From assembly GCF_017469785.1 (NCBI RefSeq), contig NZ_JAFUFU010000008.1: a stretch of DNA of 64,000 bases; one strand, given 5' to 3'. The first letter of the stretch is position 1. Every line of letters starts with the position of its first letter. Below the pieces are notes generated by a model that was not told the origin of the DNA, searched no databases, and saw only the letters and a list, made by a program, of their open reading frames with translations. Made by a program: the position numbers and the translations under genes. Source of the stretch: Treponema sp. Its GTDB lineage: Bacteria; Spirochaetota; Spirochaetia; Treponematales; Treponemataceae. Below are positions 19,753 through 39,468 of this stretch, one piece after another.

Positions 19753-19927
19753 GTTGGATGCCCATGCGCCGAAGGCGCAAACATCAATAGCTTCCAATAG
19801 GCAAACGGCGGCTTGTCCGCCGTATTAAGGAAAATGATCTCCTTTTGGAGAATTAGTCTCAATACGAGTGCGCAAAAGAATAAATATCAATAATTTTCAG
19901 TTTTTTTATAAGCCATAAATAAAAAAA

Positions 19928-19973
19928 ACAGGGGGTACTTGAAGTGAAGTGAAGTGCACCCCCTGTTTTTTTT
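19928..19973. terminator. Bidirectional intrinsic terminator
   Basis: The stem ACAGGGGGT(928-936)/ACCCCCTGT(958-966) is flanked by an A8 run upstream and a T8 run downstream. The loop carries (GAAGT)x3. Confidence 0.75.
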
Positions 19974-20040
19974 ACAGTGACCTAAGGAAACACTGATTAA
20001 TCGCATTAAGTGTTAGTCAGCACTTACCTATAGCAGATTA

Positions 20041-20331
20041 CAGTTTTTTGTAAGTTAATTCATTTCCTTTAATAGTCATTTTTAATTCTTCTTTGTCTTC
20101 TGAGAATGTTCCGCTTTGCTCCCCGAGACCTGAGACTGTAAAAGTTACAGTATTTCCTGAAATAGTGTATGTAAAATCAGACTTTTCGCTTTCAGAAATA
20201 GTTTTCCCATCTGAAGAGATTGTAAAATCTAAATCACCTTCATCAGTTTTTAATGTGAGTTTAGAGCCGGAAAGTGAATAAGCTGCAGATTGAGAATGAA
20301 GCTCGTGGAAAAGATGCTGTAAAAAAATGAT
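20041..20331 (-). pseudogene. Start-less 97-codon open frame encoding a lipocalin-like beta-rich domain (probable gene remnant)
   Basis: My own translation of the minus strand gives ...AAYSLSGSKLTLKTDEGDLDFTISSDGKTISESEKSDFTYTISGNTVTFTVSGLGEQSGTFSEDKEELKMTIKGNELTYKKL*. There is no ATG/GTG/TTG before codon ~85 and no signal peptide. Confidence 0.4.
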
Positions 20332-20366
20332 TCACAAAATTATTGAGTATGTGTTATAATTATTTT

Positions 20367-20714
20367 ATGGCAAATGATACAACTATTGCAACAACCAGCC
20401 CTATCGGGCAGCATTTGGAAAAAGTTTCAGAGGGAGCTCCTGTTGCTTACCTCATGTTCAACCAAAAAAAAATCAATCTTGTAGCCAAAATGACGCTTGG
20501 ACGCTCTGTTGAGTGTTCGATTGTTATTGACAACAAACTGGCAAGCCGGCAGCACGCTACGATTCAGAAAATCCGTGATGCGTATTTTATTAAGGATGAA
20601 AAAAGCACAAATGGTACATTCCTTAACGGGCACCGCGTACCTCCTGATAAATATGTAAAACTCAACCCTGGCGATAAAATCACTATCGGTACGACAACGC
20701 TCGTAATGTCGTAA
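20367..20714 (+). CDS. FHA-domain protein
   Basis: LGRS..C.IVIDN.LASRQHATI...STNGTFLNG. The start at ATG 20367 is preferred, because the ORF-track start at 20343 lies upstream of the TATAAT box (20355-20360). Confidence 0.85.
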   Translation: MANDTTIATTSPIGQHLEKVSEGAPVAYLMFNQKKINLVAKMTLGRSVECSIVIDNKLASRQHATIQKIRDAYFIKDEKSTNGTFLNGHRVPPDKYVKLNPGDKITIGTTTLVMS

Positions 20715-20730
20715 AATTCGGGATTAATTT

Positions 20731-21744
20731 TTGTCTCAACTCAGAAATTTGCTGCAGTCTTATCTTGATTCTCCCGAGCTTCCGTCTCATGATGCTTTAC
20801 TTTCCCTTTTGGAAGGCGGAATTGCCGTGCTCGAAGGGGAAAGCTCTGATTACCGTCCTTTGGCCACTGATAAAAATGCGGGCGGACTTTTGGATTTTAC
20901 TTCTTCGCAGTTCAATTCTCTTCCTATAATAATCGTGCCTGACTTGCATGGACGGGGCAAATTCATTCTTGATATCATGGATTTTAAGATTGGCGGGCAC
21001 TCGGTTCTGGAGCTTTTGGAATCCGGTAAAATAATTGTCCTTTGTGTTGGCGACATTTTTCACTCCGAGAACCGCGGGCGCGCAAGATGGAAGCAGGCTT
21101 ATCTGGACTTTATGAACGGAAATCTTGTGAACGAGTCTTTGACCGCTGAGATGCGCGAGAACCTTTCTCTTCTGGAGATGATTCTTTCACTCAAATCGGC
21201 TTTTGCGAGCCATTTTCACATTTTAAAGGGCAATCACGAGAATATTCTGAACGAAGATATGCGGCAAAAGCACGGAAATGTTCCTTTCTGTAAATTCTGT
21301 GATGAAGGAAATATGGTGCGGGATTTTTTGCAGCACGCCTACGACGACCTGATTCTTCACGAGATTTATTGCTTTGAGAACTCTCTTCCGATTTGTGCGG
21401 CTTTCAAAAACTGCGTGGTAAGCCATGCCGAGCCTGCCACTTTCTTTAGCCGCGAGCAGATTATAAATTATCACGCTGAGCGTTCAATCGTAACTTTCGC
21501 TCTTACTTGGACAGCCAACGACGCGGCGGATAGTGGCACGGTGGAGCATCTTTTTAATGAGCTTTTGCCTGAGCCGAGCCGTAAGAGTGCCTGGTATTTT
21601 TCCGGGCACAGGCCTGTTCTTGGAAAATACGCTTTGAGGCAGGAAGACCGTTTGGTTCAGATTCACAATCCCGAAATTGAACAGGTAGCGGTCGTGATTC
21701 CAGGACGAAAATTTAATCCTGAAACAGATATTGTGGTTGTTTGA
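20731..21744 (+). CDS. PPP-family (calcineurin-like) metallophosphoesterase, a probable Ser/Thr protein phosphatase
   Basis: PDLHG (DxHG), GDIFHSENRG (GDxxxR) and LKGNHEN (GNHE). The start codon is TTG. Confidence 0.75.
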   Translation: MSQLRNLLQSYLDSPELPSHDALLSLLEGGIAVLEGESSDYRPLATDKNAGGLLDFTSSQFNSLPIIIVPDLHGRGKFILDIMDFKIGGHSVLELLESGKIIVLCVGDIFHSENRGRARWKQAYLDFMNGNLVNESLTAEMRENLSLLEMILSLKSAFASHFHILKGNHENILNEDMRQKHGNVPFCKFCDEGNMVRDFLQHAYDDLILHEIYCFENSLPICAAFKNCVVSHAEPATFFSREQIINYHAERSIVTFALTWTANDAADSGTVEHLFNELLPEPSRKSAWYFSGHRPVLGKYALRQEDRLVQIHNPEIEQVAVVIPGRKFNPETDIVVV

Positions 21745-21830
21745 AACGGAAAGTTGAAAACGGAAAACGGAAAGTGAATTTACTTCCTCTGTAATTTTCC
21801 ACTTTCCACTTTCAGTTTTCAGTTTAAAAA
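21744..21830. repeat. Intercistronic imperfect palindromic repeat of GAAA(A/C)GGAAAG units
   Basis: GAAACGGAAAGTTGAAAACGGAAAACGGAAAGTG ... CACTTTCCACTTTCAGTTTTCAGTTT lies between the phosphatase stop and the kinase RBS. Confidence 0.6.
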
Positions 21831-21838
21831 AGGAGAAT

Positions 21839-23515
21839 ATGATGGCAGAGAACCTTCCTCAGATGATTGGTAAGTATCGCATTATGGGTCTGGTCGCTAA
21901 GGGCGGAATGGGGGCTGTTTACAAGGCCGTTCATCCGACTCTTAAGCGCATGGTCATTCTCAAAAAACTTACGATTAAAGGGAACTCCACGATTCGGGAG
22001 CGGTTCAAGCGTGAGGCTCAGATTCTTTTGGACATGCAGAGCCCGTACATCGTGCATCTTTTTGATTATTTCGTTGAAGGAAACAGCCATTATATAGTAG
22101 AAGAATTCGTTGACGGTCTTTCCCTTGCCCAGGTTATTGAAAAACAGGTGTCGCTCGGAACGGAACTGTCGCTTCTCGTGTTTTTGGATGCCTGCTACGC
22201 GCTCAAATTCGCCCATGCAAGAGGAATCGTTCATCGTGACATCAAGCCCGGAAACATTTTGATTAGCCGCCGTGCCGAAGTTAAGCTGGCTGACTTCGGA
22301 ATCGCCGCCAGCGATGACATCGAGGAAATTGCGGTCACAAAATCAGAGCGGATTGTCACGAAGGTTGCGGGCGACGTTACCCAGACAGGCGTTACTCTTG
22401 GAACTCCTGCCTACATGAGTCCTGAGCAGATTATGGACTCGCGCTCCGTGGACAACCGGGCCGACATTTATTCCATGGGCGTCATGCTCTATGAAATGCT
22501 CACAGGCTCAAAACCCTTCGCTTCCACAATCAGCGCCGAGAATCTTGAGAAAATCAAAAAGGGCAAGTACATCAATCCCCGGAAGATTGATCCCTCGATT
22601 CCCCACGGAATTTGCCGCATGATTCGCAAAATGCTCAAGGCTAATCCAGAAAAACGCTATAAGTCCATCGATTCTGTCATCAAAATCGTAAAAAAATACC
22701 TGAGGGACTACGACACCCACGCAATAAGAATTTCCCTCGCACAGATAATTCTTGCAAAGAATCAGTTCGTAATCCCTGAATTTGAAAAAAAGAGCCGGCT
22801 GGGAGTGAAAATCGCAAGCTATGCCTTTTGCGCAGTGGCTCTTTTCTGCCTCGGAATGTACGCATGGTCTTCGGGAATTGTCCATGCCTCGGTTTTAAGC
22901 CCATGGTACAAGCCTGTGACTCTGAACCTCCTGACTCCAGTCGCCGGCGTCCAGAACAACATCTACGGTCTGGATATCCCGGTAAAAGCCTACTTCTTTG
23001 ATGAGACAAAAAACGATCTCCCGGAAGTGAAGGGAAGCCAGCGGGATTTCAAGCAGAGCGAGGGAATAATCTCACGGACAAAAAGCGGAAAGACTGTGTC
23101 ACAAAACTCCAGCAAGAACATAAAATATCTTTCGATTAAGCCAGTGTACTTGAAAGACGGATCCTACCGGGTCAAAATCCTCATTGGCTCATACGTGATG
23201 TGGTCCAGCTTCCAGGTGAATGGTGAGAGCGTGAACATGAATTTCGACAACTTGCAGAGGGTAGTGCGCCCAGTTTCTGTTCAGACCCGCGCCTTCGATG
23301 CGAAAACCGGCGACATCCTCACTGCGAAGACCCGATTCACTGTCCTTTACAACGGAAAATATCTCCCCTTCGATCAGGTTCCCCAACGGGAACTTGTAAG
23401 CGGTAAAATCATGAAAATCCACGCCGAATGTGAAGGTTATAAACTAAAAGAATTCAGCATGATTATAGACTGGTATCAGGATTCTTTATTCGTGAATGCT
23501 GGATTGGAAAAATAA
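21839..23515 (+). CDS. Hanks-type Ser/Thr protein kinase with one TM segment and a ~200-aa extracytoplasmic C-domain
   Basis: GKGGMGAVYKA, VILKKL, HRDIKPGNILI, DFGIA and GTPAYMSPEQ. The TM segment is VKIASYAFCAVALFCLGMYAW. Confidence 0.9.
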   Translation: MMAENLPQMIGKYRIMGLVAKGGMGAVYKAVHPTLKRMVILKKLTIKGNSTIRERFKREAQILLDMQSPYIVHLFDYFVEGNSHYIVEEFVDGLSLAQVIEKQVSLGTELSLLVFLDACYALKFAHARGIVHRDIKPGNILISRRAEVKLADFGIAASDDIEEIAVTKSERIVTKVAGDVTQTGVTLGTPAYMSPEQIMDSRSVDNRADIYSMGVMLYEMLTGSKPFASTISAENLEKIKKGKYINPRKIDPSIPHGICRMIRKMLKANPEKRYKSIDSVIKIVKKYLRDYDTHAIRISLAQIILAKNQFVIPEFEKKSRLGVKIASYAFCAVALFCLGMYAWSSGIVHASVLSPWYKPVTLNLLTPVAGVQNNIYGLDIPVKAYFFDETKNDLPEVKGSQRDFKQSEGIISRTKSGKTVSQNSSKNIKYLSIKPVYLKDGSYRVKILIGSYVMWSSFQVNGESVNMNFDNLQRVVRPVSVQTRAFDAKTGDILTAKTRFTVLYNGKYLPFDQVPQRELVSGKIMKIHAECEGYKLKEFSMIIDWYQDSLFVNAGLEK

Positions 23516-23575
23516 GCCGTTTCCCGCATGGAGGCGGGCTTGGAGAAGTAACGGCTTTCTGTTACACTTCATCTC

Positions 23576-24286
23576 ATGTCTCAGCCAAAATTATTCAGCA
23601 TTATCGACAAAGCTGTCTACGATTATAAAATGATTGAGCCGGGGGATAAAATCCTTGTGGGGGCTTCCGGCGGTAAGGATTCTACGGCTCTAATAGAATA
23701 TCTGGCCAATCGCTCTAAGAGGAAGGACGCTGATTTTTCTTTTACGGCCATTCATATCGAGACTGATTTTGAGGCCTGCACCATGAGCCCCCGGCTTAGA
23801 AAACAGCTTGAGGAATGGAATGTGGACACGTTGAATTATTTCGTGGATGTGGAAAACCGGGTAAAAGAAGGCTTTAAGATGAGCTGCTACTGGTGCTCGA
23901 ACCAGCGGCGAAACGAGCTTGTGCATTTTGCGGTCAAAAACGGCTACAACAAGCTGGCTCTGGGGCATCACCTTGATGACATTCTTGAGACCTTGCTAAT
24001 GAACATGCTCCGTAAAGGCGAGCTTTCCACCATGCCACCCAGATTGAACTATGAGAAATATCCTCTTTCAATCATCCGCCCTCTCTGTTACGCCGATGTT
24101 GAGACAATAAAAGAACATGCAAAAGAATCCGGCTATATCAGCACAACCTGCACCTGCATGTATCAGGACAATTCCGGCCGGAAGGACGCACGGGCGCGGC
24201 TTGAAGCCCTGACAAAAGGAGACCGTCGGGCAAAGGAGCGAATGCTTGCCTCTTTGAGAAACATCAACCGGGAGTATCTTCCATAA
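23576..24286 (+). CDS. ttcA: PP-loop ATPase, TtcA-like tRNA 2-thiocytidine synthetase
   Basis: The SGGKDS PP-loop, CYWCSNQRR and a C-terminal CTC Cys cluster. Confidence 0.75.
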   Translation: MSQPKLFSIIDKAVYDYKMIEPGDKILVGASGGKDSTALIEYLANRSKRKDADFSFTAIHIETDFEACTMSPRLRKQLEEWNVDTLNYFVDVENRVKEGFKMSCYWCSNQRRNELVHFAVKNGYNKLALGHHLDDILETLLMNMLRKGELSTMPPRLNYEKYPLSIIRPLCYADVETIKEHAKESGYISTTCTCMYQDNSGRKDARARLEALTKGDRRAKERMLASLRNINREYLP

Positions 24287-24364
24287 GCGCGGGGAAAACT
24301 TTCCCTTCTGCATAACGCCCCCTTTTTTCTTGCCGATAGCCCTTCTTTCTATTATATTTATAGT

Positions 24365-27127
24365 ATGAGCAAACACGATGATGATAAGAATTCAAACAAT
24401 GAAAATATAGATTTAGATGAAGTCAAAGGTGCTTTTAAGGATTTTATGAAAGACAATTTTGATGTGGACATAAACGTTGATGAACTGCCCGATGCGGTAG
24501 AAATTCCGATTGACGGTGAAAAGTCATCCGAAAAATCTTCTGATGTGCCTGCCGGAGAAAAGGACGACAAATCGGAGAGTTCAGGCGGAAATTCTTCTGA
24601 GAAGGAAGCCGAGCCTGCTCACAAAAAGGGCAAGCGCACTCGAAAAGTTTCCCTCAAAGACTTGGGCGAGGATGCCCAGATTATGCCCATCGAGGACTTT
24701 TTGCCTCCCAAACTGAACATAATTCCCGTGGCGGGCCGTCCCATGTTCCCGGGCATTTTCACGCCCATTATGATTAATTCTCCCGAAGACGCAAAAACCG
24801 TAGAGAGCGTCTACGAGGGTGACGGATTTATCGGTCTTGTTCTTTTAAAAGACGATGATTCAAAAGACGGCGACAAGACTCCCAATATCAAGGATTTGTA
24901 CACGGTGGGAACCGTGGCCCGTATCGTGCGAAAAATCAACCTTCCTGACGGCGGAATCAACATCTTCATTTCTACGATAAAACGTTTCAGAATCCGAAAG
25001 TCTTTAAGCGCGTCGAATCCGATTGTGGCCGCCGTTGAGTACCTTGAAGACGAAGAATTCGACACTTTTGAGGTCAAGGCACTCACCCGCGCCCTCATCA
25101 GCGAAATGAAGGAAATCAGCGAGAACAATCCTCTTTTCAGCGAGGAAATGCGCCTCAACATGGTCAACATCGACAATCCGGGCAAAATCGCTGACTTCGT
25201 GGCTTCTGTCCTCAATGTTGAGAAGGCTGACCAGCAGAAAGTCCTTGAAGAGACTAATGTCCGGGCCCGAATGGAGCAGGTTCTGGTCTACATCAAAAAA
25301 GATCAGGATCTGCTTAGAATCCAGAAAAAGATTCAGAACGAACTTAACGAGAATTTTGAAAAGAACCAGCGGGAATACTTCCTCCGTGAAGAAATGAAAA
25401 TGATTCAGGACGAGCTGGGAGTGGGCGAGGACGGCTCTGACTACCAGAAATTCAAGGCCAGAATCGCTGATTTTGAATTCGAGGGAGAAATCTTAGAAAC
25501 GGTTGAGAACGAACTTGAAAAATTCAAGCTCATGGATCCAAGTTCCAGCGAGTATTTTGTCTCACGGAATTATCTGGAGCTGGTCTGCTCCCTTCCCTGG
25601 CGGGACGAGTCAAAAGAAAACTACGATTTGGTAAAAGCCGCAAAGATTTTGGAGCGCGACCACTACGGCCTTGACGATGTTAAGAAGCGAATCATGGAAT
25701 ACCTTGCCGTGCGAAAGCTCAAGAACGACAACAAAGGCTCAATCATGATTCTCGTGGGGCCTCCGGGCGTGGGTAAAACTTCCATCGGTCACTCAATCGC
25801 CGAGGCCATGAACAAGCCTTTCTACCGCTTTTCTGTGGGCGGAATGCGTGACGAGGCTGAAATAAAAGGCCACCGCCGCACTTATGTTGGAGCCATGCCA
25901 GGAAAAATCCTTCAGGGGCTGAAAATCGCCAAAACCAAGTCTCCTGTCTTTTTGATTGACGAGGTTGACAAAATGGGAGCCAGCTATTCTGGCGGCGACC
26001 CGGCTTCTGCCTTGCTTGAAGTCCTTGACCCAGAGCAGAATGTTAGTTTCCGCGACTCATACTTGGATTTGCCTTTTGATGTTTCAAATGTTTTCTTCAT
26101 TCTTACGGCAAACACACTGGACAAAATCCCTGAGCCTCTTCTTGACCGTGCGGAAATCATCTCCCTTGCAGGCTACATCGATCAGGAAAAGCTTGAGATT
26201 GCAAAAAAATACCTTATTCCGAAGAATCTCGTTAAGAACGGCCTGGCGAAAAATCAGGTCAAATACACAAAAGAAGCCCTGCTCAGAATCGCCGAGGAGT
26301 ATGCCAGGGAGGCGGGTGTCCGTCACTATGAAAAGTGCGTTGACAAAATCCACCGCAAGCTTATCACCCAGATTCTCACGGGAATTCCTGCCGAAAGCAA
26401 AAAGCTTGGCTCTGTAACAAAGTCCATCACTGACGAGGAAATCGGCTCCCTCAAAAAAGAGACTTTTGTGATTGACGCTCCCGATTTGGACAAGTACCTT
26501 GGAAAGCCTGTCTTCGACGAAAGCGAAATCAAAAAAGCTGACAGACCTGGAACTGCAATCGGCTTGGCTTGGACCAGCATGGGAGGCGACACTCTCTTAA
26601 TCGAGTCAATCACTTTCCCCAGCGACAAGGGAGGCTTGCAGCTCACCGGTCAGATGGGAGATGTAATGAAGGAGTCAGCCCAGATTGCCATGAACTGGGT
26701 CAAGCAGTACGCCATCGAGCACAACATCAAAAAAGCCCAGTGGTTCGAGCGCAACACGATACACCTTCACATTCCTGAAGGAGCGACCCCGAAAGACGGA
26801 CCGAGCGCGGGAATCACCATGGCAACCACTCTCATGTCACTTTTGACAGGTCGGCCAATAAAGCCCAATGTTGCCATGACGGGCGAGCTTGACCTGACAG
26901 GGGCTGTCATGCCGATTGGGGGCTTGCGTGAAAAGACTGTGGCGGCTCGCCGCAACGGAATCAAGACGATTTTTATCCCCAAAGCCAATGAGCGGGACCT
27001 GGACGACATTCCTGACCATGTAAAGAAGGGAATCACTTTCATCCCGGTGCGACAGGCAATGGAAGTGATGAAACAGATTTTCCAGCCCGCCGTCAAAAAA
27101 AGCGAAGACGTGGAGTATGGCTTTTAA
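24365..27127 (+). CDS. lon: ATP-dependent Lon protease with a ~105-aa acidic N-terminal extension
   Basis: GPPGVGKTS Walker A and the protease motif DGPSAGITMATTL. The canonical Lon N-domain begins near Met107 (ATG 24683), which is an alternative start. Confidence 0.95.
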   Translation: MSKHDDDKNSNNENIDLDEVKGAFKDFMKDNFDVDINVDELPDAVEIPIDGEKSSEKSSDVPAGEKDDKSESSGGNSSEKEAEPAHKKGKRTRKVSLKDLGEDAQIMPIEDFLPPKLNIIPVAGRPMFPGIFTPIMINSPEDAKTVESVYEGDGFIGLVLLKDDDSKDGDKTPNIKDLYTVGTVARIVRKINLPDGGINIFISTIKRFRIRKSLSASNPIVAAVEYLEDEEFDTFEVKALTRALISEMKEISENNPLFSEEMRLNMVNIDNPGKIADFVASVLNVEKADQQKVLEETNVRARMEQVLVYIKKDQDLLRIQKKIQNELNENFEKNQREYFLREEMKMIQDELGVGEDGSDYQKFKARIADFEFEGEILETVENELEKFKLMDPSSSEYFVSRNYLELVCSLPWRDESKENYDLVKAAKILERDHYGLDDVKKRIMEYLAVRKLKNDNKGSIMILVGPPGVGKTSIGHSIAEAMNKPFYRFSVGGMRDEAEIKGHRRTYVGAMPGKILQGLKIAKTKSPVFLIDEVDKMGASYSGGDPASALLEVLDPEQNVSFRDSYLDLPFDVSNVFFILTANTLDKIPEPLLDRAEIISLAGYIDQEKLEIAKKYLIPKNLVKNGLAKNQVKYTKEALLRIAEEYAREAGVRHYEKCVDKIHRKLITQILTGIPAESKKLGSVTKSITDEEIGSLKKETFVIDAPDLDKYLGKPVFDESEIKKADRPGTAIGLAWTSMGGDTLLIESITFPSDKGGLQLTGQMGDVMKESAQIAMNWVKQYAIEHNIKKAQWFERNTIHLHIPEGATPKDGPSAGITMATTLMSLLTGRPIKPNVAMTGELDLTGAVMPIGGLREKTVAARRNGIKTIFIPKANERDLDDIPDHVKKGITFIPVRQAMEVMKQIFQPAVKKSEDVEYGF

Positions 27128-27250
27128 AATCTGACGCGGATAAACGCAGATGCACGCGGATTTTTGAACCACAGATTACACAGATGGCACAGAGTTTGGA
27201 GAAATTTCCTTTTACAAAAATCTCTCTGTGAACTCCGTGCCCTCTGTGAG
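27128..27250. repeat. REP-like intergenic element (ACGCGGAT x2, CACAGA x3 and its inverted partner)
   Basis: GACGCGGATAAACGCAGATGCACGCGGATT, then AACCACAGATTACACAGATGGCACAGAG ... CTCTCTGTGAACTCCGTGCCCTCTGTGAG. In 28 nt, 24 positions are shared with 32487-32515. Confidence 0.65.
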
Positions 27251-27271
27251 AAATTTACAATTGAGGTTTTT

Positions 27272-28528
27272 ATGTTTGCACGAGTTTTTTTGAATAAAAA
27301 GGAAGAAGAGGAAATCAAGCAGGGCTTTCCCTGGGTCTTTGACAATGAGATTTCCCACATCAAATATGATTCTGCTGAGGGCGTAAAGCAGGCCTCTTTG
27401 GCAGAATGTGCCGCATGTGACGATGTAAAAGACGGAAGCGTCGTTGAAGTATTTGCCAAGGGCGGAGCTTTTTTGGGAAGCGGCGTAATCAACAAAAAAT
27501 CAAAAATCACCGTCCGACTGATTGGAAGCGAGCACGCCGACCAGATTATGGCGGACGCACAGGCTTTCTATGACGAGAAGATTCAGGCTGCCTACGATTT
27601 GCGGAAACTGCATTATTCAATAAAGGATTCTTACCGCCTTGTTTACGGCGAGGCTGATTTTATCCCCGGCCTTATCGTCGAGCGATTCTATGACGTGAAC
27701 AAAAATGTCTATCTGGTCGTTCAGTTCTCAACTTTAAGCTGCGAGGTCTTCCGAAAGGAAATCATGCACGCCTTGCGAAAAATCATAAAGCCCTACGGAG
27801 TCTACGAGAAAAGCGATGCTCCCAGCCGCGAAAAGGAAGGCCTTAAATTGAGATGCTGCTGGGACGGCGAAGTTCGGGAAGAAAAAATCACTATCTGTGA
27901 GAACGATGTTTTAATTGAAGTTGACTTGGCAAACGGTCAGAAGACCGGCTACTTCCTTGACCAGAAAGACAACCGCCGCGTGGCAGGAAGTCTTTCTCAG
28001 GGAAAGCGTGTCTTGGATACCTTCACCCACACAGGAGCCTTCGGCTTGAACTGCGTGAAGGGCGGGGCAAAGGAAGTCATTTCCGTGGATATTTCCCCGG
28101 AAGCCGTTGAGCTGGTCAAGAAAAATATCGAAATGAACAAAGCCGGCTCTAAAATGAAGGCCGTCTGCGCCGATGTGTTTGATTTGCTAAAAGAATACGA
28201 AAAATCTGGCGAAAAATTCGATTTGATTATCCTCGATCCGCCGGCTTTTACCAAAAGTGCCAAGAATATCGAAAAGGCTTATGGCGGCTACAAGGAAATC
28301 AACCTCCGTGCCATGCGCCTCTTGAATCCAAAGGGAATCCTCGTCACCTGCTCATGCTCATATTTCTTCGATGCGGATCATTTCTACGGAATGCTCATGA
28401 AAGCCGCCGAAGACTCAAAAAAACGGGTGCAGATTCTCGCAAAATACGGAGCTGGCCCCGACCATCCTGTTTTGTTGGGCTACCCGAAATCAGAATACCT
28501 GAAGTGCGCGGTCTGCCGGGTAATTTAA
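27272..28528 (+). CDS. rlmI: PUA-domain class I SAM-dependent rRNA (cytosine-C5) methyltransferase, RlmI-like
   Basis: N-terminal KKEEEEIKQGFPWVFDNEI (PUA-like), then VLDTFTHTGAFG and ILDPPAF motifs. The start is moved to the ATG at 27272 (GAGG RBS), because the upstream part of the ORF is repeat sequence. Confidence 0.75.
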   Translation: MFARVFLNKKEEEEIKQGFPWVFDNEISHIKYDSAEGVKQASLAECAACDDVKDGSVVEVFAKGGAFLGSGVINKKSKITVRLIGSEHADQIMADAQAFYDEKIQAAYDLRKLHYSIKDSYRLVYGEADFIPGLIVERFYDVNKNVYLVVQFSTLSCEVFRKEIMHALRKIIKPYGVYEKSDAPSREKEGLKLRCCWDGEVREEKITICENDVLIEVDLANGQKTGYFLDQKDNRRVAGSLSQGKRVLDTFTHTGAFGLNCVKGGAKEVISVDISPEAVELVKKNIEMNKAGSKMKAVCADVFDLLKEYEKSGEKFDLIILDPPAFTKSAKNIEKAYGGYKEINLRAMRLLNPKGILVTCSCSYFFDADHFYGMLMKAAEDSKKRVQILAKYGAGPDHPVLLGYPKSEYLKCAVCRVI

Positions 28529-28590
28529 AATTGAAAGCAAAAGTTTTGGGTTTTCAAGGATTTCGGTCGCGCTTGTCCATCTGATTGCTG

Positions 28591-29611
28591 TTATTTATAA
28601 ATAAGCTTTGTCTCCAGGTTGATTGGTGTCTGGCAGTTTGAGGAAAGTTCATTGATGTCAAGCTGTGATTTTGTGACAATCGTTACTGTCACCATGCCAT
28701 TTTCATGGTTCCTTTGCTCATAAATCAAGCGTCCGCAATCGTCATATTCTCTGTAAACATTCTCTTCTTCTTCCTTGTCACCTTCATTTGGAAGCAAAGG
28801 CTTTATGCCACCGATTTCAAAAAAATCATATCCTTTCGTAAAGGTGTAGCAGCTTCCATGGGCGAGTTCTTTGTCAGAAAAATTATACTGGGTTGTCTTA
28901 TAAAGATTCTTATCTCTTGAATATGTATTGTCCATCTTCATCCAGCCGTTCATGTAAAAGCGACAGCACAGAGACTTGTCCTCATTCCAGATTCTGATTA
29001 TGTCAAAAATCCGTCCGTTTCCTTCAAGCTCATCAAACTCAATGTAGTTGTCCCCGTCCCATGCCGTAAAAGGAGAATAGTCGCTTTTTTCAGTTTTCCT
29101 TCTCTGGTAGAAGTATGTATTTTCGTCAATTTTTGTGATTTCAGTGGCGGGAACAGAAAGTCCTTGCTTTGATGTCTTAAGGCTGGCCGCTTCTGATAAC
29201 GAGTATTTTATTTTTTCCCCGCGTTTGTAGACTGTTACGCTTGAATCATTCCAGCGCACATGAATGTCCCAGTCAGGATGCTTTTCAGTCTTTTCCTCGA
29301 AATAATTCCAGTTTGAAATGTCGGTGAGCACGCCGTTTGAATACTCAAGACGCCTTACGGTGGCGGACTTCAAAATTTTTGACTTGTAATCAGTGTAATA
29401 AAGGCTGTAAATATAGTTATCGCTTGAAGTGTCGTAGTTGATGTTCCAGTCTGAATAATTCTGGTCAAGGTTTATCATAAGGTTGATGATTTTTCCATGC
29501 TCTTCGGAAATGGAAATTTCAGGGTTCTGGGGGGGGGATTTTTTTTTCGCATGAAAGGAAAAAAACAACCGAAAACAGCATGAAAAAAAATTTTGAGAGA
29601 ATTTTAGGCAT
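28591..29611 (-). CDS. Lipoprotein gene interrupted by a frameshift in a homopolymer pair (phase-variable or pseudogene)
   Basis: A GGAGGAG RBS precedes the ATG at 29611, which encodes MPKILSKFFFMLFSVVFFLSC (lipobox). This frame stops at 29519-29521. The 325-codon body (28591-29568) is in the frame reached by deleting 1 nt in the A9 or C9 tract. Confidence 0.65.
29529..29547. repeat. Homopolymer pair G9-A-T9 (C9/A9 on the coding strand)
   Basis: Counted directly: G at 29529-29537, A at 29538, T at 29539-29547. The tract lies immediately after the lipobox Cys codon. Confidence 0.9.
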
Positions 29612-29714
29612 GACTCCTCCGAAATAATGCAGAAAACTAATTATAATTGCAAGCCTTAACTTGAATCAAGTGTATTCTTTATCATATAATCAATTTTATA
29701 AGGGAGAATTGAAA

Positions 29715-30557
29715 ATGAAAAAAAGTTTGATGGCAATCTGCACGATTGTTTTTTTATCTGCGCTCTTCTATTCCTGCAATGAGAAAGAGACAGGCTCTGC
29801 CGGAGATGGCGGCGAAAAAACTGCTGCCGTAAAAATCCAGAAAACGGCTCCCAGCCTTATCATCTACACTGGATGGGATTTGTATGAGGAGCGCTCTGAT
29901 GGAAAAATGTACGCCGTGGGCGAGGCTGAGACGGGAGACGCTGTTAAAATCTACCTGAACGATGATGACTCAATCCAGCAGAAAAAGGCAGTCCGCCACT
30001 TGCAGAGCGGTAAGGAAGAAAGCCTTGATTTCGTGCGCGTTCAGTATGAGGGCAAGGATTTCTGGACGCGGGATATTTTTGTTAGCGGCCCCGGAGTTTA
30101 TCTTTCCTGGGTCATGACAGAAAATGCCTTTGCCTATTCTGCGCCTGACGGAGCTAGCATTACGGGCACTCAGATTGATGAGGGAACTTTTCTTGCCGCT
30201 GAGGACGGCCAGATAGACGGTGTTAACGGTTTTTACAAAGCCGTGATTTACAACGGCAGGCCTTTCGGAAAAGAAATCTATCTCCAGTCAGAAACTTTTA
30301 CCCATGAACCAATGCTAAAAGAAATCGCCCGCACCTTCTCAAAAATCGACGAAAAGACAAAACCCGAAGTCCGCGATGAGATTTTTTTGAAATTCTATCA
30401 TGAAGCGGCTGCCTTTGAGGAATGGGAGAGGTTCTATTTCGTCAAAAAACTCATAGAGGCCAATAAAAAATCCCTTGTCTCAGAAAAAGTCAAGGAAGTC
30501 CTTTCAGATACAATTTATCAGAATATATTCGATGAAGATTTTAAAATCGATGAATAG
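29715..30557 (+). CDS. Lipoprotein, function unknown
   Basis: An AGGGAG RBS is followed by MKKSLMAICTIVFLSALFYSC with a lipobox. Confidence 0.7.
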   Translation: MKKSLMAICTIVFLSALFYSCNEKETGSAGDGGEKTAAVKIQKTAPSLIIYTGWDLYEERSDGKMYAVGEAETGDAVKIYLNDDDSIQQKKAVRHLQSGKEESLDFVRVQYEGKDFWTRDIFVSGPGVYLSWVMTENAFAYSAPDGASITGTQIDEGTFLAAEDGQIDGVNGFYKAVIYNGRPFGKEIYLQSETFTHEPMLKEIARTFSKIDEKTKPEVRDEIFLKFYHEAAAFEEWERFYFVKKLIEANKKSLVSEKVKEVLSDTIYQNIFDEDFKIDE

Positions 30558-30575
30558 GAAAATTTGGAGACTAAA

Positions 30576-31541
30576 ATGAAAAAATTGATTGCATATATTT
30601 CACTTGCACTTTTGGCGGCTTCTGCTTTCGCCAAGACGACAGGCTTCATGCTCCGGCCCAACGGTCCCCTTCGTGAGGACAAGGGAAAGGGCGGGGTAGA
30701 GTGGGCGACCACAGTTCCAGAGGGAACAGAGCTTACCATTGAGGACGAAAATCCTGTCCTCCTCACGCTGATTACCGAAAAAGAACGCTTCGATAATATC
30801 AAATTCTACAAGGTGTCATACGATAAAAAGACCTATTATGCCCGGGAAAGCGAAGTTGCCCTGGGAAAAAGCGTCACCGTCATCCTCTCTGACACCACGC
30901 TCTTTTCTAAGCCCGCAATTTCATCTTTCTTGAACGCTCAGATTGAGAAAGCTTCCCTAGTGGTGGCGGGCGAGAAATCAAAAAATGCGGACATCGACTT
31001 CACCGAGATTCAGTATTGGTCTGGAAGTGCCAGCGAAATCCGCAAGCGCTATGTCTTTTCAGAGAAAGTGAGCGAAAACAAGAAGGATTTGGAAGCTGTC
31101 CGCGTGGTAGATACGGCCCTTGCCCTCAAAAACAAAGATGCCGAAAAAGAGCGGGCTATGAAGCAGGAGCTTTTCAAGAACGCGAAGAAGCTTAACACCA
31201 GCGATGAAATCACCGAGTACGTTCAGGCTGAATACGACAAGATTTTCGGCCGGGTGGACCTTGAATCTTTCCTGACGGGCAAAATCAAGAGCGCGGACGG
31301 CTCCAAAGTGAATGTCAGAAAAGCTCCTGTTGACGGCGAAATCGTGGCTCAGCGTGAGGACGGCGATGAAATCCCTGCCTTTTGCGCCCGCTCCGCATCA
31401 AAATCAAGCTACGACGGAATCACTGATTATTGGTATGTCTATGAATCAGGCGAGGACGGACTTTACTGGATTTTCGGCGGCTACATCGAATGGGAAAATG
31501 ACAAGCCCATAGAGCAAGAAGGGGAAAGTGAAAGATTTTAA
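30576..31541 (+). CDS. Secreted protein with a C-terminal SH3b-like domain
   Basis: MKKLIAYISLALLAASAFA is a type I signal peptide. GSKVNVRKAPVDGEIVAQRE is SH3b-like. Confidence 0.6.
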   Translation: MKKLIAYISLALLAASAFAKTTGFMLRPNGPLREDKGKGGVEWATTVPEGTELTIEDENPVLLTLITEKERFDNIKFYKVSYDKKTYYARESEVALGKSVTVILSDTTLFSKPAISSFLNAQIEKASLVVAGEKSKNADIDFTEIQYWSGSASEIRKRYVFSEKVSENKKDLEAVRVVDTALALKNKDAEKERAMKQELFKNAKKLNTSDEITEYVQAEYDKIFGRVDLESFLTGKIKSADGSKVNVRKAPVDGEIVAQREDGDEIPAFCARSASKSSYDGITDYWYVYESGEDGLYWIFGGYIEWENDKPIEQEGESERF

Positions 31542-32487
31542 CTGCATTTTTGTCATAGGCCCAACCGCCGTGGGGAAAACCGCCATCGGCGTGCGCCTGG
31601 CCGACCGCTTTGACGGCGAGATTATCAGCGCGGATTCAAGGCAGGTTTATAAAGGCTTAGACATCGGAAGCGGCAAGGACTTGGCGGACTACACCCTGAA
31701 CGGAAAGAAGATTCCCTATCATCTCATCGATGTATGCGATTTAAAGCGCGAGTACAATCTTTTTGACTTTCAGGAAGATTTTTACAAAGCCCTCGCCGAC
31801 ATCACGAGCCGGGGAAAACTCCCGATTTGCGTGGGCGGAACCGGCATGTATGTGGATTCAATTCTCCATCACTACGACATGATTCCATTCGTGGAAAGGG
31901 CAGGTGAGAGGGCCGAGCTTGAAAAAAAGAGCGAAAAAGAGCTTGAAGAAATCCTCACGCGGGAAAAAGAAAAGCTCCACAACACTTCCGAATTCGGCGA
32001 CAAAGAGCGCATGATAAAATCAATCCTCATAAACCGCTTCAACATCTCAGAAGAGTGCCGCCTTGAGCGGGAAAAACTCCGTGCATCCCGCCCGGCCTTA
32101 AAGCCCCTTGTCATCGGAACGACCCTTGACCGCTCCCTCGTGCGGGAGCGAATCGCAAAACGACTTTCCGACCGCATGGAAGAAGGCCTCATCGAGGAAG
32201 TTGAGGCTCTCCATGCCCGCAGAGAAGAAAACGGGGCAGAGTGGAGCCGCCTTGAAGCCCTGGGCCTTGAATACCGTTTCGTAAGCGATTATTTACAGGG
32301 AAAATACAAATCCAAAGAAGAAATGAAAAATCTCTTGCAGCTGGCTATCGGTCAGTTCGCAAAAAGGCAGGAAACCTGGTTCCGCTGCATGGAAAAAAAA
32401 GGCATAAAAATACATTGGCTCCCCCAGATTATGGATGTGGAGGAGCGTTTCAAGGCCGCCTGCAAAATCGTTGAAGAAGAAAAATAA
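31528..32487 (+). CDS. miaA: tRNA dimethylallyltransferase
   Basis: GPTAVGKTAIGVRLA P-loop and IISADSRQVYKGLDIGSGK. The start codon is GTG. Confidence 0.9.
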   Translation: MKDFNCIFVIGPTAVGKTAIGVRLADRFDGEIISADSRQVYKGLDIGSGKDLADYTLNGKKIPYHLIDVCDLKREYNLFDFQEDFYKALADITSRGKLPICVGGTGMYVDSILHHYDMIPFVERAGERAELEKKSEKELEEILTREKEKLHNTSEFGDKERMIKSILINRFNISEECRLEREKLRASRPALKPLVIGTTLDRSLVRERIAKRLSDRMEEGLIEEVEALHARREENGAEWSRLEALGLEYRFVSDYLQGKYKSKEEMKNLLQLAIGQFAKRQETWFRCMEKKGIKIHWLPQIMDVEERFKAACKIVEEEK

Positions 32488-32515
32488 ACCACAGGTTACG
32501 CAGATGCCACAGATG
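32487..32515. repeat. Short copy of the CACAGA-type REP-like element
   Basis: AACCACAGGTTACGCAGATGCCACAGATG overlaps the final base of the miaA stop codon. Confidence 0.55.
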
Positions 32516-32571
32516 AAAGGCGCAAAAAGCCCGAAAATGCAAAAAAGGCTGGCGTAGGTGTGGTTCTGACA

Positions 32572-32606
32572 AAAACTCGCTTGAACTTGTTCACCGCGAG
32601 TTTTTT
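32572..32606. terminator. Bidirectional intrinsic terminator
   Basis: The stem AAAACTCGC/GCGAGTTTT (32572-32580 / 32596-32604) has an A-run before it and a T-run after it. Confidence 0.65.
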
Positions 32607-32656
32607 GGCAGGTTCACACCGGGAGCCCGCTTTTTTTTGTATTATTACGAATAATC

Positions 32657-32875
32657 TTACGCGTTTACCGCGATTTTCTCGCTTTCCGCTACTTTCGTCA
32701 AATATCCGGTTCGGACGCAGCTCTCGAAGAGGGCCTTGCTTATGTAGTCAGTTGTCACGTCATCATATCCGTCTTTGTCACGGACGATACGAACGACATA
32801 GCCGTCATCCATTTCGCGGACAACTGTCATGTAATCTGAATTGCTTCCAATACTTTTAAGTGTATATGTTCCCAT
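32657..32875 (-). CDS. Small hypothetical protein (72 aa)
   Basis: A GGGAG RBS precedes the ATG at 32875. The composition is protein-like (MGTYTLKSIGSNSDYMTVVREMDDGYVVRIV...). Confidence 0.5.
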   Translation of the reverse strand: MGTYTLKSIGSNSDYMTVVREMDDGYVVRIVRDKDGYDDVTTDYISKALFESCVRTGYLTKVAESEKIAVNA

Positions 32876-33017
32876 AATGATCTCCCAGCCCAAAAATTGG
32901 ACAAACTTTTCAAATTTTATCGCAGGATTACTGTCCTACATTTATATTTTCGGTATACTAAAAAAAAGTTTTAGCACTTTTTGAATTTATCTTGAATTCT
33001 AGAGGTTTAGTGAACTT

Positions 33018-33881
33018 TTGACAAGATACTGCGACGCCCATATCCATCTTTCTCACTCCAAAAAGCCTGAATTCAGCCTTGGCGAGCAGTATTTCTGTGT
33101 CTCATCCTGTCATTCTCAGGAAGAATTTGAATTTTTGTCGGGCGCATCCCTCACTCGCGCACTCTCGTTGTCGTGCGCTTTTCCGTTCGGGTCGGGTGTT
33201 CCGCCGCTCGGTAGCCCTCGGTCGTCCGCTTCGCTTCCGACTGGCTCCGCCACAGCTACATACCCTTGCGCTTTTATTTCCTACGGCATTCATCCGCAGT
33301 CGCCATCACTTAAAGAGACTTCTTTTGTAAAAAGAGAGCTTGAATATCTTGAATCCCTGCTTGCTTCCAAAAAAATTGTGGCGGTAGGCGAGTGCGGATT
33401 TGATTTTTTCACGCAGGAATTCAAGGCTACGGCGCGGGAGCAGGAAAATGTTTTTGAAGCCCAGCTTGCCCTTGCCCAGAAATACAATGTGCCCTTGGTC
33501 CTGCATTTGCGGAAAGCCATCGAAAAAGTCTTCTCTTATTCCCGAGCTCTTAAGGATGTCAGGGCTGTAATATTCCATTCATTTCCTGGAACGCTCCGGG
33601 AAGCCAAGTCCCTCAGAAATCACGGAATCAACGCTTTCTTTTCCTTTGGAAAACCCGTTCTTAACGGCAAAAAAAGCGCGATTGACTGCCTTTCCAATCT
33701 TCCTTCGGAAAACCTGCTCCTTGAAACAGACGCTCCCTATCAGACATTGAAAGGCGAGCAGGAGACTTTTCCGTCCGAAATCAAACGGGTCTACGAAATG
33801 GCTTGTCAGCTTAGAAAATGCCCGGCAGGGGAGCTTTCTTCTATCATTTACGAAAATTTTTGCCGGGCATTTTGTATTTAA
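33018..33881 (+). CDS. tatD: TatD-family metal-dependent hydrolase carrying a ~44-aa GC-rich insertion
   Basis: CDAHIHL, GECGFDF, PLVLHLRKA and LLETDAPY. The start codon is TTG. The insertion lies at about 33139-33272. Confidence 0.8.
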   Translation: MTRYCDAHIHLSHSKKPEFSLGEQYFCVSSCHSQEEFEFLSGASLTRALSLSCAFPFGSGVPPLGSPRSSASLPTGSATATYPCAFISYGIHPQSPSLKETSFVKRELEYLESLLASKKIVAVGECGFDFFTQEFKATAREQENVFEAQLALAQKYNVPLVLHLRKAIEKVFSYSRALKDVRAVIFHSFPGTLREAKSLRNHGINAFFSFGKPVLNGKKSAIDCLSNLPSENLLLETDAPYQTLKGEQETFPSEIKRVYEMACQLRKCPAGELSSIIYENFCRAFCI

Positions 33882-33933
33882 ATTGAAGTGATGTTCAGCC
33901 CTTTACAGGGCTTTACCATGCTTTTATCTTGGA

Positions 33934-34467
33934 CTAGTTTCCCTGAGCCGGGAATTCTTCCTGAACGCTTGCGATGTCAGCCTCAGAGGCCTGGGTCCAG
34001 TACTGGAAGACTTTGATGGGGCCAACTGTACCAGCCATGGCAAGTGTAGGCTCTTTTGCTGTGTATCCCTTGTTTTTATCGCCGGAGGCAAGATATTTGA
34101 TTACGCATCCGTACATCTTTCCGCTGCCAGGATCAATGATGTTTCCCTTGCTCCAGTTGCCTTCTGATTCTTTTTTCATGTTGAAAATCCATGGTGTTCC
34201 TACGGTCTTCATTTCGTTTACGTTGCCTGCAAGCGGGAAGCCTTTGTAGCTTTTTTTGCATGCGCTGGCGATAACGTCCTGAGGATTGTCAACCACGGCC
34301 GCAATCGTTCCGTAGAGAGTGCCGCTTTCCTCATAGATTTTCCAGATGGCGGTGATTTTGCCTGTTTTGTCATCGACGCTTTTCCATAGTCCGCATGCCG
34401 GATCTGCGGCAAAAACGGAAAGACTGCTGACAAATAGGGCAGCGAGAAGTGCAAGTACTTTTTTCAT
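33934..34467 (-). CDS. Secreted DUF2147-family protein
   Basis: An AGGAGGAAT RBS is followed by the signal peptide MKKVLALLAALFVSSLSVFA. The GLWKSVDDKTGKITAIWKIYE...LYGTI signature is present. Confidence 0.7.
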   Translation of the reverse strand: MKKVLALLAALFVSSLSVFAADPACGLWKSVDDKTGKITAIWKIYEESGTLYGTIAAVVDNPQDVIASACKKSYKGFPLAGNVNEMKTVGTPWIFNMKKESEGNWSKGNIIDPGSGKMYGCVIKYLASGDKNKGYTAKEPTLAMAGTVGPIKVFQYWTQASEADIASVQEEFPAQGN

Positions 34468-34528
34468 ACGATTCCTCCTTGTTGAAAGTGATAGTACCAC
34501 TATCAGTATATATCACTTATATTATTTG

Positions 34529-34873
34529 TCAAGGATTTATTTTGAGCCTTGCGACTCCTTCTCCGTAGTCTTTCCACATTTCATCGACCAGACTCTGGGC
34601 GTCACCGCTGGTTTTTCCCCGGAGCAGGTCTTCAAGCTTCTGTCCTGAATTCTTGAGCTTTTCCATGCAGAGTTGTCTGGCGGCCCCTTTTGTCGCGTGG
34701 ACATAGCTCGCAGCCTCGCTCATATCCCCGCTTGAAATCATTTTTTCAAGGCTGCTCTTTTCAAATTTATTTTCCGTCAGAAAAGAATCAATCAGTATCG
34801 AAAGAAGTTCCTCGTCACCATCCAGAAGGTTAAGGGCCGCTTCTCTGTCAAAGACCGGCGCTTTATCGCTCAT
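34529..34873 (-). CDS. Stand-alone Hpt (histidine phosphotransfer) domain protein
   Basis: SYVHATKGAARQL carries the H-x-x-K-G phospho-His motif. The protein is 114 aa. Confidence 0.75.
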   Translation of the reverse strand: MSDKAPVFDREAALNLLDGDEELLSILIDSFLTENKFEKSSLEKMISSGDMSEAASYVHATKGAARQLCMEKLKNSGQKLEDLLRGKTSGDAQSLVDEMWKDYGEGVARLKINP

Positions 34874-36440
34874 AAAAATCTTCTCCGTCCTTGTTTGTGA
34901 TTACAAAACATGGAAGATTTCGCACTTCGACGAGACGCACGGCTTCCATTCCAAGATCCTCGTAGTCGAGGATTTCCTGACTTACGATATATTCGCTTGC
35001 TATGAGAGCGGCGATTCCTCCCGGGGTTCCAAGATAGAAGGCGCCGTATTTCCTGCAGGCGTTCGTCCAGCCCTTGCTCCTGTTGCCTTTTGCAAGGGTG
35101 ACCAGCGCCGCTCCCCGGCTCATGAGTGATTCTGCGTATACATCCATTCTGCCGGCCGTGGTGGGGCCGAAACTTCCGATGACTTTTCCGTTCGGTGTGC
35201 GGGCAGGGCCTGCGTAGCAGATTGGGTAGCGTGTGGTGTATTCCGGGAGCTCTTTTCCTGAATCAAGGAGTTTTTGCCAGCGTGCATGAGCCGCATCCCT
35301 GGCTACAAGAATTTTCCCGTTCAGTATGATTCTGTCGCCGGGTTTTGCCTTTGAAAGGGCGGAAAGGACTTTTGAAATGTCTCCTTTGCTTGTGACTTCT
35401 GTTTCTTTTGATTCGGATTTTTTTCCCGCAGATGAAACCGCCTTTTCAAATCCTTCAAGTTCACTTGGGTTTGCTACGGTCTTCTGCAGGTAAAGGCCTT
35501 CTTTCGTGATGACGGCTTTCAAGTTGCGGTGTGCGGAACATGAGACTCCGAAGGAAATGGGGCAGCTGGCTCCGTGCCGTGGAAGACGGATGACTGTGGC
35601 ACTCAGGGCGAATTTTTTCCCGCCGAACTGAGCTCCGTAACCTGATTCACGGGCGATTTTCATTGTTTCTTCCTCAAGCTCCCTGTCCCTGAATCCCCGG
35701 TCGTTTGGCTCGTAAGTCATGTCATCGTAAGCGCCCATTGTTGCCAGCTTCAATGCGAGAAGATTCTGCTCCGGGCTCAACCCTCCTGCGACCACGGCTA
35801 TGGTGTATGGGGGACATGCGCTGGTTCCGAAGTGCTCGATTTCTTCTCTCATGAGGGCCGAGAAACGCTCTTTTGTAAGATATGCTTTTGTGCCCTGAAT
35901 GAAACTGGTTTTGTTAGATGAGCCGCCGCCTTTTGCGCAGAAAATAAATGAAAGTGAATCTTCCCCGGCGGTTTTTACGAAGGATGGCGTGGGTGCGAGG
36001 GCGCAGTCTGCGTCAAAAATCGAAACCTGTGGAGGAAGATTGTTTTTCGGGTCTTTTTCATCGTAAAATGATATGGGAACGGTGGTTGAAAAGCGCAGTT
36101 TTTTTTCGTCGTAGACTTTTTTGACTCCGGCACTGAGTTTTTCATAGGCGTCCTTTGTGGGAAATGAGCCCTTCTTCCATGCGAAAATGTTTGCGATTCC
36201 AGTATCCTGACAAAGAGGAAATACTCCCCTGGAAGAGACTTCCGCATTTTTGAGCATGCAGGAAAGGACGTAGCGGTCGTTGTCCGTTGCGTCCTTGTCC
36301 AGGGCCGCCTCTATAATGCCCTCAAGATGCTCTTTTGTGAAAGTGAAGGAAAGGCGAGAGAATGCCTGTTCCGCTGCCTCGGAGAGTTCTGTTTCTCCCG
36401 GGAAAAAATCGAAATCGGAAAGACTGTTTTGTTCTTGCAT
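34863..36440 (-). CDS. Class I (Fe-S) fumarate hydratase / tartrate dehydratase family, fused alpha and beta domains
   Basis: LCQDTGIANIF and the Cys ligands. The C-terminal beta-domain is GPTTAGRMD...GKG. Confidence 0.85.
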   Translation of the reverse strand: MQEQNSLSDFDFFPGETELSEAAEQAFSRLSFTFTKEHLEGIIEAALDKDATDNDRYVLSCMLKNAEVSSRGVFPLCQDTGIANIFAWKKGSFPTKDAYEKLSAGVKKVYDEKKLRFSTTVPISFYDEKDPKNNLPPQVSIFDADCALAPTPSFVKTAGEDSLSFIFCAKGGGSSNKTSFIQGTKAYLTKERFSALMREEIEHFGTSACPPYTIAVVAGGLSPEQNLLALKLATMGAYDDMTYEPNDRGFRDRELEEETMKIARESGYGAQFGGKKFALSATVIRLPRHGASCPISFGVSCSAHRNLKAVITKEGLYLQKTVANPSELEGFEKAVSSAGKKSESKETEVTSKGDISKVLSALSKAKPGDRIILNGKILVARDAAHARWQKLLDSGKELPEYTTRYPICYAGPARTPNGKVIGSFGPTTAGRMDVYAESLMSRGAALVTLAKGNRSKGWTNACRKYGAFYLGTPGGIAALIASEYIVSQEILDYEDLGMEAVRLVEVRNLPCFVITNKDGEDFYER

Positions 36441-36493
36441 GGAAAGAAATATATCACAATGACAATTTTTTCTCTATCTGATATACTGTCTTT

Positions 36494-38257: not shown

Positions 38258-38326
38258 TATGCGGGCCTTCTGGATGTGAGCTTTTCAGGCTCTTCAATCA
38301 GCCGGGCTTTTAAGGTGGTGTTGGTT

Positions 38327-39409: not shown

Positions 39410-39439
39410 AAAAAAGTTTCAAAAAAATTAAAAAAACGA

Positions 39440-39468
39440 TTGACACTTTTTTCTGATTTTGCTAATAT
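39440..39468 (+). promoter_or_regulatory. Strong sigma70 promoter with an A-rich UP-like tract, driving 5S rRNA
   Basis: TTGACA at 39440-39445, a 17-nt spacer, and TAATAT at 39463-39468. An A-rich run lies at 39410-39437. Confidence 0.6.

Follow-up and report, generated by a model that had tools for sequence, protein, structure and literature searches.

In this study, we analysed a 64-kilobase (kb) stretch of DNA from Treponema sp. (contig NZ_JAFUFU010000008.1; the whole stretch is called the window, and all coordinates below refer to it) and identified a predicted lipoprotein gene on the minus strand whose reading frame depends on the length of a cytosine run lying within the ORF (open reading frame), shortly behind the codon of the lipobox cysteine. 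With eight cytosines (C8) the frame is open over 339 codons, and with nine (C9), as in the window, translation meets a stop after 30 codons. Both lengths were observed between strains that are near-identical elsewhere. It is probable, although far from certain, that this gene is a hypermutable poly-C contingency locus, i.e. a phase-variable locus with a translational ON/OFF switch, which is OFF in the window.

The first-pass annotation of this DNA had placed a ribosome-binding site, an ATG at 29611, a lipobox Cys codon, two homopolymer tracts and a stop at 29519-29521 on the minus strand, and each of these positions proved to be exact (Table 1). The signal peptide, MPKILSKFFFMLFSVVFFLSC, has the features of a lipoprotein signal peptide, namely a charged n-region, a hydrophobic h-region and the lipobox Cys. 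In the C9 frame it belongs to an ORF of 30 amino acids at 29519..29611, and the body of the gene forms an ORF of 325 codons at 28591..29568, which opens at an internal TTG and lies, as had been claimed, in the frame gained by a one-base loss; the mature part accounts for 319 codons, down to 28591. Deletion of one C from the tract gives ...LSCEKKIPPQNPEIS..., and deletion of one A from the adjacent run of nine adenines (A9) gives ...LSCEKKSPPQNPEIS.... In the C8 reading, the tract is decoded as ATC CCC CCC CAG (Ile-Pro-Pro-Gln). The C tract is located 61 nucleotides (nt) downstream of the ATG, and promoter-like hexamers are found at 29669-29640; promoter phase variation of the Treponema pallidum type was rejected because the tract is inside the ORF. 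The short OFF ORF still encodes the full lipoprotein signal peptide together with a nine-residue mature stretch (EKKIPPPEP) after the Cys, and a tiny lipopeptide could conceivably be made from the OFF allele.

Table 1. Features of the lipoprotein gene, deletions found in other strains and neighbouring genes, in window coordinates
Feature	Position	Strand	Remark
Whole lipoprotein gene	28591..29611	-	Reads as 339 amino acids if C8; split in the window into a 30-amino-acid ORF and an out-of-frame body
Candidate sigma-70-like promoter, TTGATT-18 nt-TATAAT	29640..29669	-	10/12 consensus matches; consensus match only; overlaps the divergent candidate of the neighbouring gene
Ribosome-binding site GGAGGAG	29614..29620	-	GGAGG core 4 nt before the ATG; kept in all intact alleles
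Start codon ATG	29611-29609	-	Opens MPKILSKFFFMLFSVVFFLSC
Lipoprotein signal peptide	29549..29611	-	Ends at the lipobox Cys, codon 29551-29549
Single G	29548	-	Between the Cys codon and A9
A9 tract (plus strand T9)	29539..29547	-	Part of GAA AAA AAA A (Glu-Lys-Lys)
T	29538	-	Separates A9 from C9
C9 tract (plus strand G9)	29529..29537	-	Variable element; C8 in frame, C9 out of frame
Premature TGA	29519..29521	-	Ends the signal-peptide frame in the C9 form
Mature-protein coding sequence QNPEIS...LIYK	28591..29528	-	Intact; stop at 28593-28591; frame reached by one-base loss
117-nt deletion	29479..29595	-	Other strains: X15, L026, L028
439-nt internal deletion	28755..29193	-	Other strains: L026, L027, X24
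Two divergent neighbours	29715..31541	+	Lipoprotein and signal-peptide protein; context only, outside the switch
Neighbouring lipoprotein	29715-30557	+	Starts MKKSLMAICTIVFLSALFYSC; lipobox
Neighbouring signal-peptide protein	30573-31541	+	Starts MKKLIAYISLALLAASAFA

Among assembled loci, A9-T-C9 was found in the window, in a 282-kb scaffold that matches the window at 100% (L002) and in L003, and A9-T-C8 was found in 15 others (L001, L004-L014 and L023-L025); in the fetched loci the sequence around the tract was otherwise identical or nearly so. For individual sequencing runs, tract lengths were taken from Logan contigs, which offer one contig per run at the tract and drop minority variants. 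C9 was present in three runs (X1, X2 and X3, with Logan word depths of 24, 11 and 8.5, respectively), and C8 in at least 13 runs from several studies of gut, sheep gut and bioreactor samples (X4-X8, X10-X14, X16, X26 and X27). In a word search, only X1-X3 contained the complete set of sampled words of 29470-29600, and thus C9 is confined to those runs. Two additional runs (X9 and X28) read A9-TT-C7, an in-frame form in which a synonymous change of ATC to ATT shortens the run. In five other runs, all of low depth (X17, X18, X19, X20 and X29), contigs end at most about 25 nt from the tract (29508-29554), which could reflect a de Bruijn graph bubble caused by mixed tract lengths or just poor coverage.

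Protein sequences gave a similar picture for the ON form. P0001, an intact protein of 339 amino acids, is 99% identical to the repaired protein with 100% query coverage, and its 90% cluster contains six distinct intact alleles of this length (P0001, P0006, P0008, P0009, P0015 and P0016; 98-99% identity), one of which (MBP3771862.1) belongs to a genome that NCBI labels Treponema sp. Each of the six has the sequence CEKKIPPQNPE, which corresponds to A9-T-C8. Another member of the cluster, P0007, is a public gene call of 295 amino acids from an internal Met (MINLDQ...), i.e. a lipoprotein without its signal peptide; this is how gene callers treat C9 contigs.

The background on which the two tract lengths occur is almost invariant. 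Across 21,021 nt, one substitution at 33242 and the tract indel are all that separates the ON locus L023 from the window, and every other homopolymer has the same length in both, including A8, T8 and T9 runs. Five other ON loci (L004 and L007-L010) match the window at every position apart from the indel, over 1.5-6 kb, and X1-X3 show no difference from it over 20 kb. The body of the window allele is 100% identical to ON alleles and carries no further disabling mutation. With one event at this site and no more than one among 21,000 others, the tract stands out as a mutational hotspot. The tract is also not fixed in frame everywhere, so that neither of the outcomes named in the first-pass annotation as fatal to a switch (a fixed in-frame tract, or a fixed out-of-frame tract with further disabling mutations) was found; rather, the comparison of related strains that this annotation had itself suggested shows different tract lengths, with C8 in most samples and C9 here.

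A separate observation concerns X4 and L024, which showed zero single-nucleotide polymorphisms relative to the window in 19600-32000 and approximately 19 in 33032-39303, together with single-base indels in an A8 run and an A7 run (39415 and 39421). These represent a close but not identical strain to that of the window, and the block of differences at 33032-39421 looks like a recombination block between otherwise identical strains.

Several runs could be assigned to roe deer samples of one study (supplementary table S2, PMC8199421): SRR12529338 (L003, OFF) is Omasum-4, and SRR12529324 (L009), SRR12529321 (L010) and SRR12529329 (L008), all ON, are Rumen-2, Rumen-5 and Reticulum-2, respectively (PMC8199421). 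X4 likewise derives from Rumen-5. The three OFF runs have coded run ids and contain 569, 399 and 467 million letters (X1, X2 and X3), parallel to the Rumen-4, Reticulum-4 and Omasum-4 assemblies (656, 453 and 507 megabases); because of this parallel, they probably come from the three forestomach sites of a single roe deer (animal 4). The two C9 runs besides SRR12529338 are probably SRR12529322 (Rumen-4) and SRR12529327 (Reticulum-4). Different roe deer carry different tract states.

The C tract is unusual for this DNA. Its plus-strand G9 is the sole G/C run of at least 8 nt in 64 kb, where G/C runs are generally depleted: five runs of at least 6 nt were observed (6, 6, 6, 7 and 9) vs approximately 16 expected under a first-order Markov model, and a run of at least 9 nt is expected 0.22 times per window. 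In codon-usage probabilities derived from 30 long ORFs of the window, ATC-CCC-CCC had a value of ~0.035, and CCC-CCC was used in 0/20 Pro-Pro pairs. Other runs in this DNA include a C7 at 38922-38928 and a T9 at 38348-38356. The C tract is thus longer than predicted from composition or codon usage, whereas A9 is not: GAA-AAA-AAA, with a probability of ~0.24, is the usual form of Glu-Lys-Lys, and A/T runs of 9 nt are common (4 others in the window), which makes A9 alone unremarkable. For an A/T run of at least 9 nt abutting a G/C run, an estimate from run frequencies gives about 1e-4 per window.

In the intact alleles, the C tract is the sole varying element. A9 was unchanged in 14/14 loci examined, and A8 appeared only in the decayed allele L027. 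Because codon usage predicts A9 and it is constant in intact alleles, most likely it is an incidental run that encodes Glu-Lys-Lys, and A9 was rejected as a variable tract. The first-pass annotation had proposed an ON/OFF switch formed by both homopolymers; of the two, only the C tract varies, so that the supposed pair probably consists of one switch and an incidental Lys-Lys run. The A9-to-A8 route, which it gave as an example of restoration, is not the change seen.

In the allele of this species the tract is a derived feature. Its homologs, with identities of 29-58%, are lipoproteins that have no run behind the Cys; in P0002, at 57% identity, the codons are TGC AAT AAA ATC CCA CAG CAA AAC, and L016, L017 and L019 lack a run at this place as well.

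We propose that the length change arises when the C tract undergoes slipped-strand mispairing at replication. Gain of one C (C8 to C9) would shift the frame right after the lipobox Cys, so that translation would end nine codons past the Cys and the beta-rich mature domain would not be made (OFF); loss of one C would restore the frame (ON), with reversibility and an elevated switching rate as expected properties. The window would then represent the OFF state, as the consensus in three runs, of almost the same strain that is ON in other animals. A benefit of switching might be, for example, escape from phage or from host antibody targeting the lipoprotein.

The main rival is that C9 is a one-off frameshift, an effectively permanent loss in the lineage that colonised one animal, with which a dispensable gene begins to turn into a pseudogene. 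We regard this as less likely than phase variation, but it deserves serious attention, as C9 was found only in three runs of one study that are mutually identical over 20 kb, and C8 is otherwise invariant over diverged lineages. The gene has also been destroyed elsewhere, by the 117-nt deletion (X15, L026 and L028), which takes out the lipobox, both tracts and most of the signal peptide, so that the remainder is out of frame, and by the 439-nt deletion (L026, L027 and X24). In L027, in addition, the ATG is lost and the tracts have decayed to A8 and CCCGCCC. The mark of a decayed pseudogene, i.e. several disabling lesions or a body under relaxed constraint, was present in L026, L027 and L028. 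On the other hand, the window allele is undamaged beyond the one-base indel, with a body equal to that of ON alleles. The indel hit the sole long G/C run of 64 kb, and over 21 kb a single substitution is the only other change; the site is therefore mutationally special, and a one-base change there would reverse the event. Tracts of similar length are demonstrably unstable in another Treponema (PMC7864442).

Several observations weigh against phase variation. OFF via C9 was seen in just three runs of one study, probably from one animal, and possibly goes back to a single mutational event. The only other OFF length, C7, was read in X25 from one 151-nt contig with a depth of 2.5, and is weak. Mixed lengths within a sample are a hallmark of phase variation, and the contig-only data give one length per run. 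A9-T-C8 is kept in L011-L014, although these diverge from the window by 2-3.5% across 3-6 kb; constancy of C8 across lineages 3.5% apart means that the tract is not wildly unstable, or that ON is strongly selected. No second long G/C tract was found in the 64 kb that would hint at a wider set of phase-variable genes, the homology searches gave no clue to a function or surface exposure of the protein, and the irreversible nulls of other strains show that the gene can simply be lost. Such recurrent inactivation by different routes implies one of two things: the protein is dispensable, or its loss is sometimes favoured. At least some populations carry a functional and transcribed gene: it belongs to a conserved family, the ratio of nonsynonymous to synonymous substitution rates (dN/dS) between intact alleles is ~0.36, on only 10 differences, and metatranscriptome contigs are present, covering 28557-28782 and 29249-29476 only.

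The split itself is real and heritable, and is not an assembly error. A homopolymer miscall, with a true tract of C8 and one extra C, had been raised as the trivial alternative in the first-pass annotation, and is in our opinion very improbable. Homopolymers of nine are error-prone, and the five low-depth runs with contigs ending next to the tract indicate a region that is hard to assemble. The study in question (Xie et al. 2021) used TruSeq PCR-free libraries (PCR, polymerase chain reaction) and NovaSeq reads of 150 base pairs (PMC8199421). C9 was called in three separate runs by Logan, at 8-24x, and by a different pipeline, that of the depositors, in scaffold L002, but Logan gave C8 for 13 more runs, some of which share the study, library type and instrument with the C9 runs. 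Error is unlikely because a systematic homopolymer error, in PCR-free libraries, would not sort by sample or animal. With three runs and two pipelines in agreement on C9, and Logan reading C8 elsewhere, assembly error was rejected as the main explanation.

The C9 allele might still be expressed through recoding, in which case the split would be programmed or leaky. In several bacteria RNA polymerase slips on A/T runs of at least 9 nt, and CCC-C is known as a site of +1 slippage; transcriptional slippage on A9 (giving CEKKSPPQ...) or a +1 ribosomal slip on CCC-C in Pro-Pro-Pro would restore the frame, and A9 is kept in all intact alleles. This is the least probable of the explanations considered, as programmed genes keep the out-of-frame layout in relatives, A9 is explained by codon usage, no RNA contig spans the tract, and recoding would at best add a low-level leak atop an OFF allele. 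A conserved programmed frameshift was rejected, since the gene is in frame (C8) in close relatives and the tract is missing from distant homologs.

A more elaborate proposal would combine these processes. A9-T-C(n) might act as a switch on two timescales, with heritable DNA slippage in the C tract and non-heritable slippage of RNA polymerase on A9 or of the ribosome on CCC-C (leading to partial rescue or loss), and the recurrent knock-outs (C9, 117-nt and 439-nt) would mark strong fluctuating selection in the rumen, e.g. on a phage receptor. We consider this quite unlikely, if somewhat less so than a miscall. If true, an 'OFF' population would still display a little lipoprotein.

To better characterize the protein, we examined its family (P0001-P0005 and P0017-P0026), which is small: 13 representatives were found at an E value (expectation value) of at most 1e-3 among 1.84 billion proteins. 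No close relatives were present in GTDB genomes or JGI metagenomes, where only distant homologs occurred: one locus among GTDB species genomes (Treponema sp. UBA3813, 37% identity) and six distant loci in JGI metagenomes, with identities of 29-43% for the GTDB and JGI loci together. All full-length members start with a signal peptide ending in Cys (LAGC, LCSC, IVSC and others), and in an alignment of 12 family members, which include the canonical LAGC, at least 90% share the lipobox Cys; therefore, this is a predicted lipoprotein family. No Pfam or NCBIfam family matched the lipoprotein above cut-off, and a profile search against PDB gave one weak match (E value 0.01). The AlphaFold model, built from 12 sequences, had a pLDDT (predicted local distance difference test) of 85 and a pTM (predicted template modelling score) of 0.82, and consisted almost wholly of antiparallel beta strands after one N-terminal helix. 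A Foldseek search with this model against PDB yielded nothing with an E value below 1e-3 (best E value 2e-3, template modelling score at most 0.23). The family is an orphan, possibly with a new fold. The large protein P0025 (1265 amino acids) matches residues 53-128 five times, which suggests that the N-terminal module also occurs there as a repeat.

With regard to the surroundings of the gene, the first-pass annotation had reported two lipoprotein or secreted-protein genes next to it, and both were recovered (Table 1); neither matched a Pfam or NCBIfam family above cut-off. Gene order at the locus is the same in all close loci. No paralog of the lipoprotein gene was found in the window, no conserved neighbours were found in the distant loci, and a search for repeats, tRNAs and Rfam families close to the locus revealed none of relevance. 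An ORF of 78 amino acids on the minus strand (32657-32893) matches Pfam TP_0927 (PF27440) according to the precomputed annotation of its L023 equivalent; TP_0927 is a small protein family that takes its name from a T. pallidum locus. Stretches of 35-40 nt at 27223-27257, 32560-32601 and 39496-39533 are shared with unrelated contigs of the same runs, and word depth is approximately doubled (~2x) at 32273-32939 and 38943-39599, which may indicate short dispersed repeats; a repeat search within 19600-39600 found nothing matching those shared stretches.

Slipped-strand contingency loci are textbook knowledge for pathogens and are rarely documented in uncultured gut commensals. If phase variation is the correct reading, the mechanism is a known one and the instance is new, in an uncultured ruminant Treponema and seen from public metagenomes alone, which makes the locus a concrete and inexpensive example on which the detection of phase variation in metagenome-assembled genomes can be tried, through tract-length counts in existing reads. 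It also marks an orphan lipoprotein family under fluctuating or host-specific selection, because ON and OFF alleles occur in near-identical strains of different animals and deletions occur in other strains. With regard to annotation, the two ORFs should be joined as one frameshifted, phase-variable lipoprotein gene instead of being reported as a protein of 295 or 325 amino acids without signal peptide.

Poly(A) transcriptional slippage rescues frameshifted genes in endosymbionts, in Shigella mxiE and in Thermus dnaX. The resemblance lies in an A9 tract beside a frameshift, where an mRNA lacking one A would be back in frame. Unlike in those genes, the out-of-frame state is not conserved in relatives here, and codon usage accounts for A9. 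Phase-variable lipoproteins of Mycoplasma (Vlp and P78) use poly-A or short repeats in promoters or ORFs. The present gene is similar in that a lipoprotein would be toggled by homopolymer length, but base and position of the tract differ, and Mycoplasma usually has multigene variable families, whereas the gene described here is single copy, with no paralog in the window.

In T. pallidum, poly-G tracts of at least 8 nt vary from 7 to 11 within isolates, and poly-G phase variation has been described for tprE/G/J, tp0126 and tprL (PMC7864442). The two cases share the genus, G/C tracts of at least 8 nt and putative envelope proteins as the products affected. However, the tracts studied in T. pallidum lie in promoters and tune transcription, whereas the present tract lies in the ORF and would act via the reading frame; in addition, the genes have no sequence relationship.

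Translational phase variation by poly-G/C tracts in the 5' parts of ORFs for surface proteins is found in Neisseria, Campylobacter and Helicobacter. Examples from Neisseria include pilC, with a tract in the signal-peptide region, hpuA, which encodes a lipoprotein, and the lgt genes. For H. canadensis, homopolymer-associated coding regions have been listed (PMC2823697). Unlike these bacteria, the host of the present tract is a commensal, uncultured spirochaete of the ruminant gut, known here from contigs alone, and it shows one well-supported OFF length and no set of such tracts in 64 kb. In its architecture, however, the locus corresponds to these systems, with a G/C homopolymer of about 8-9 nt near the 5' end of an ORF for an envelope protein, whose length sets the frame, and with ON and OFF alleles in otherwise near-identical strains.

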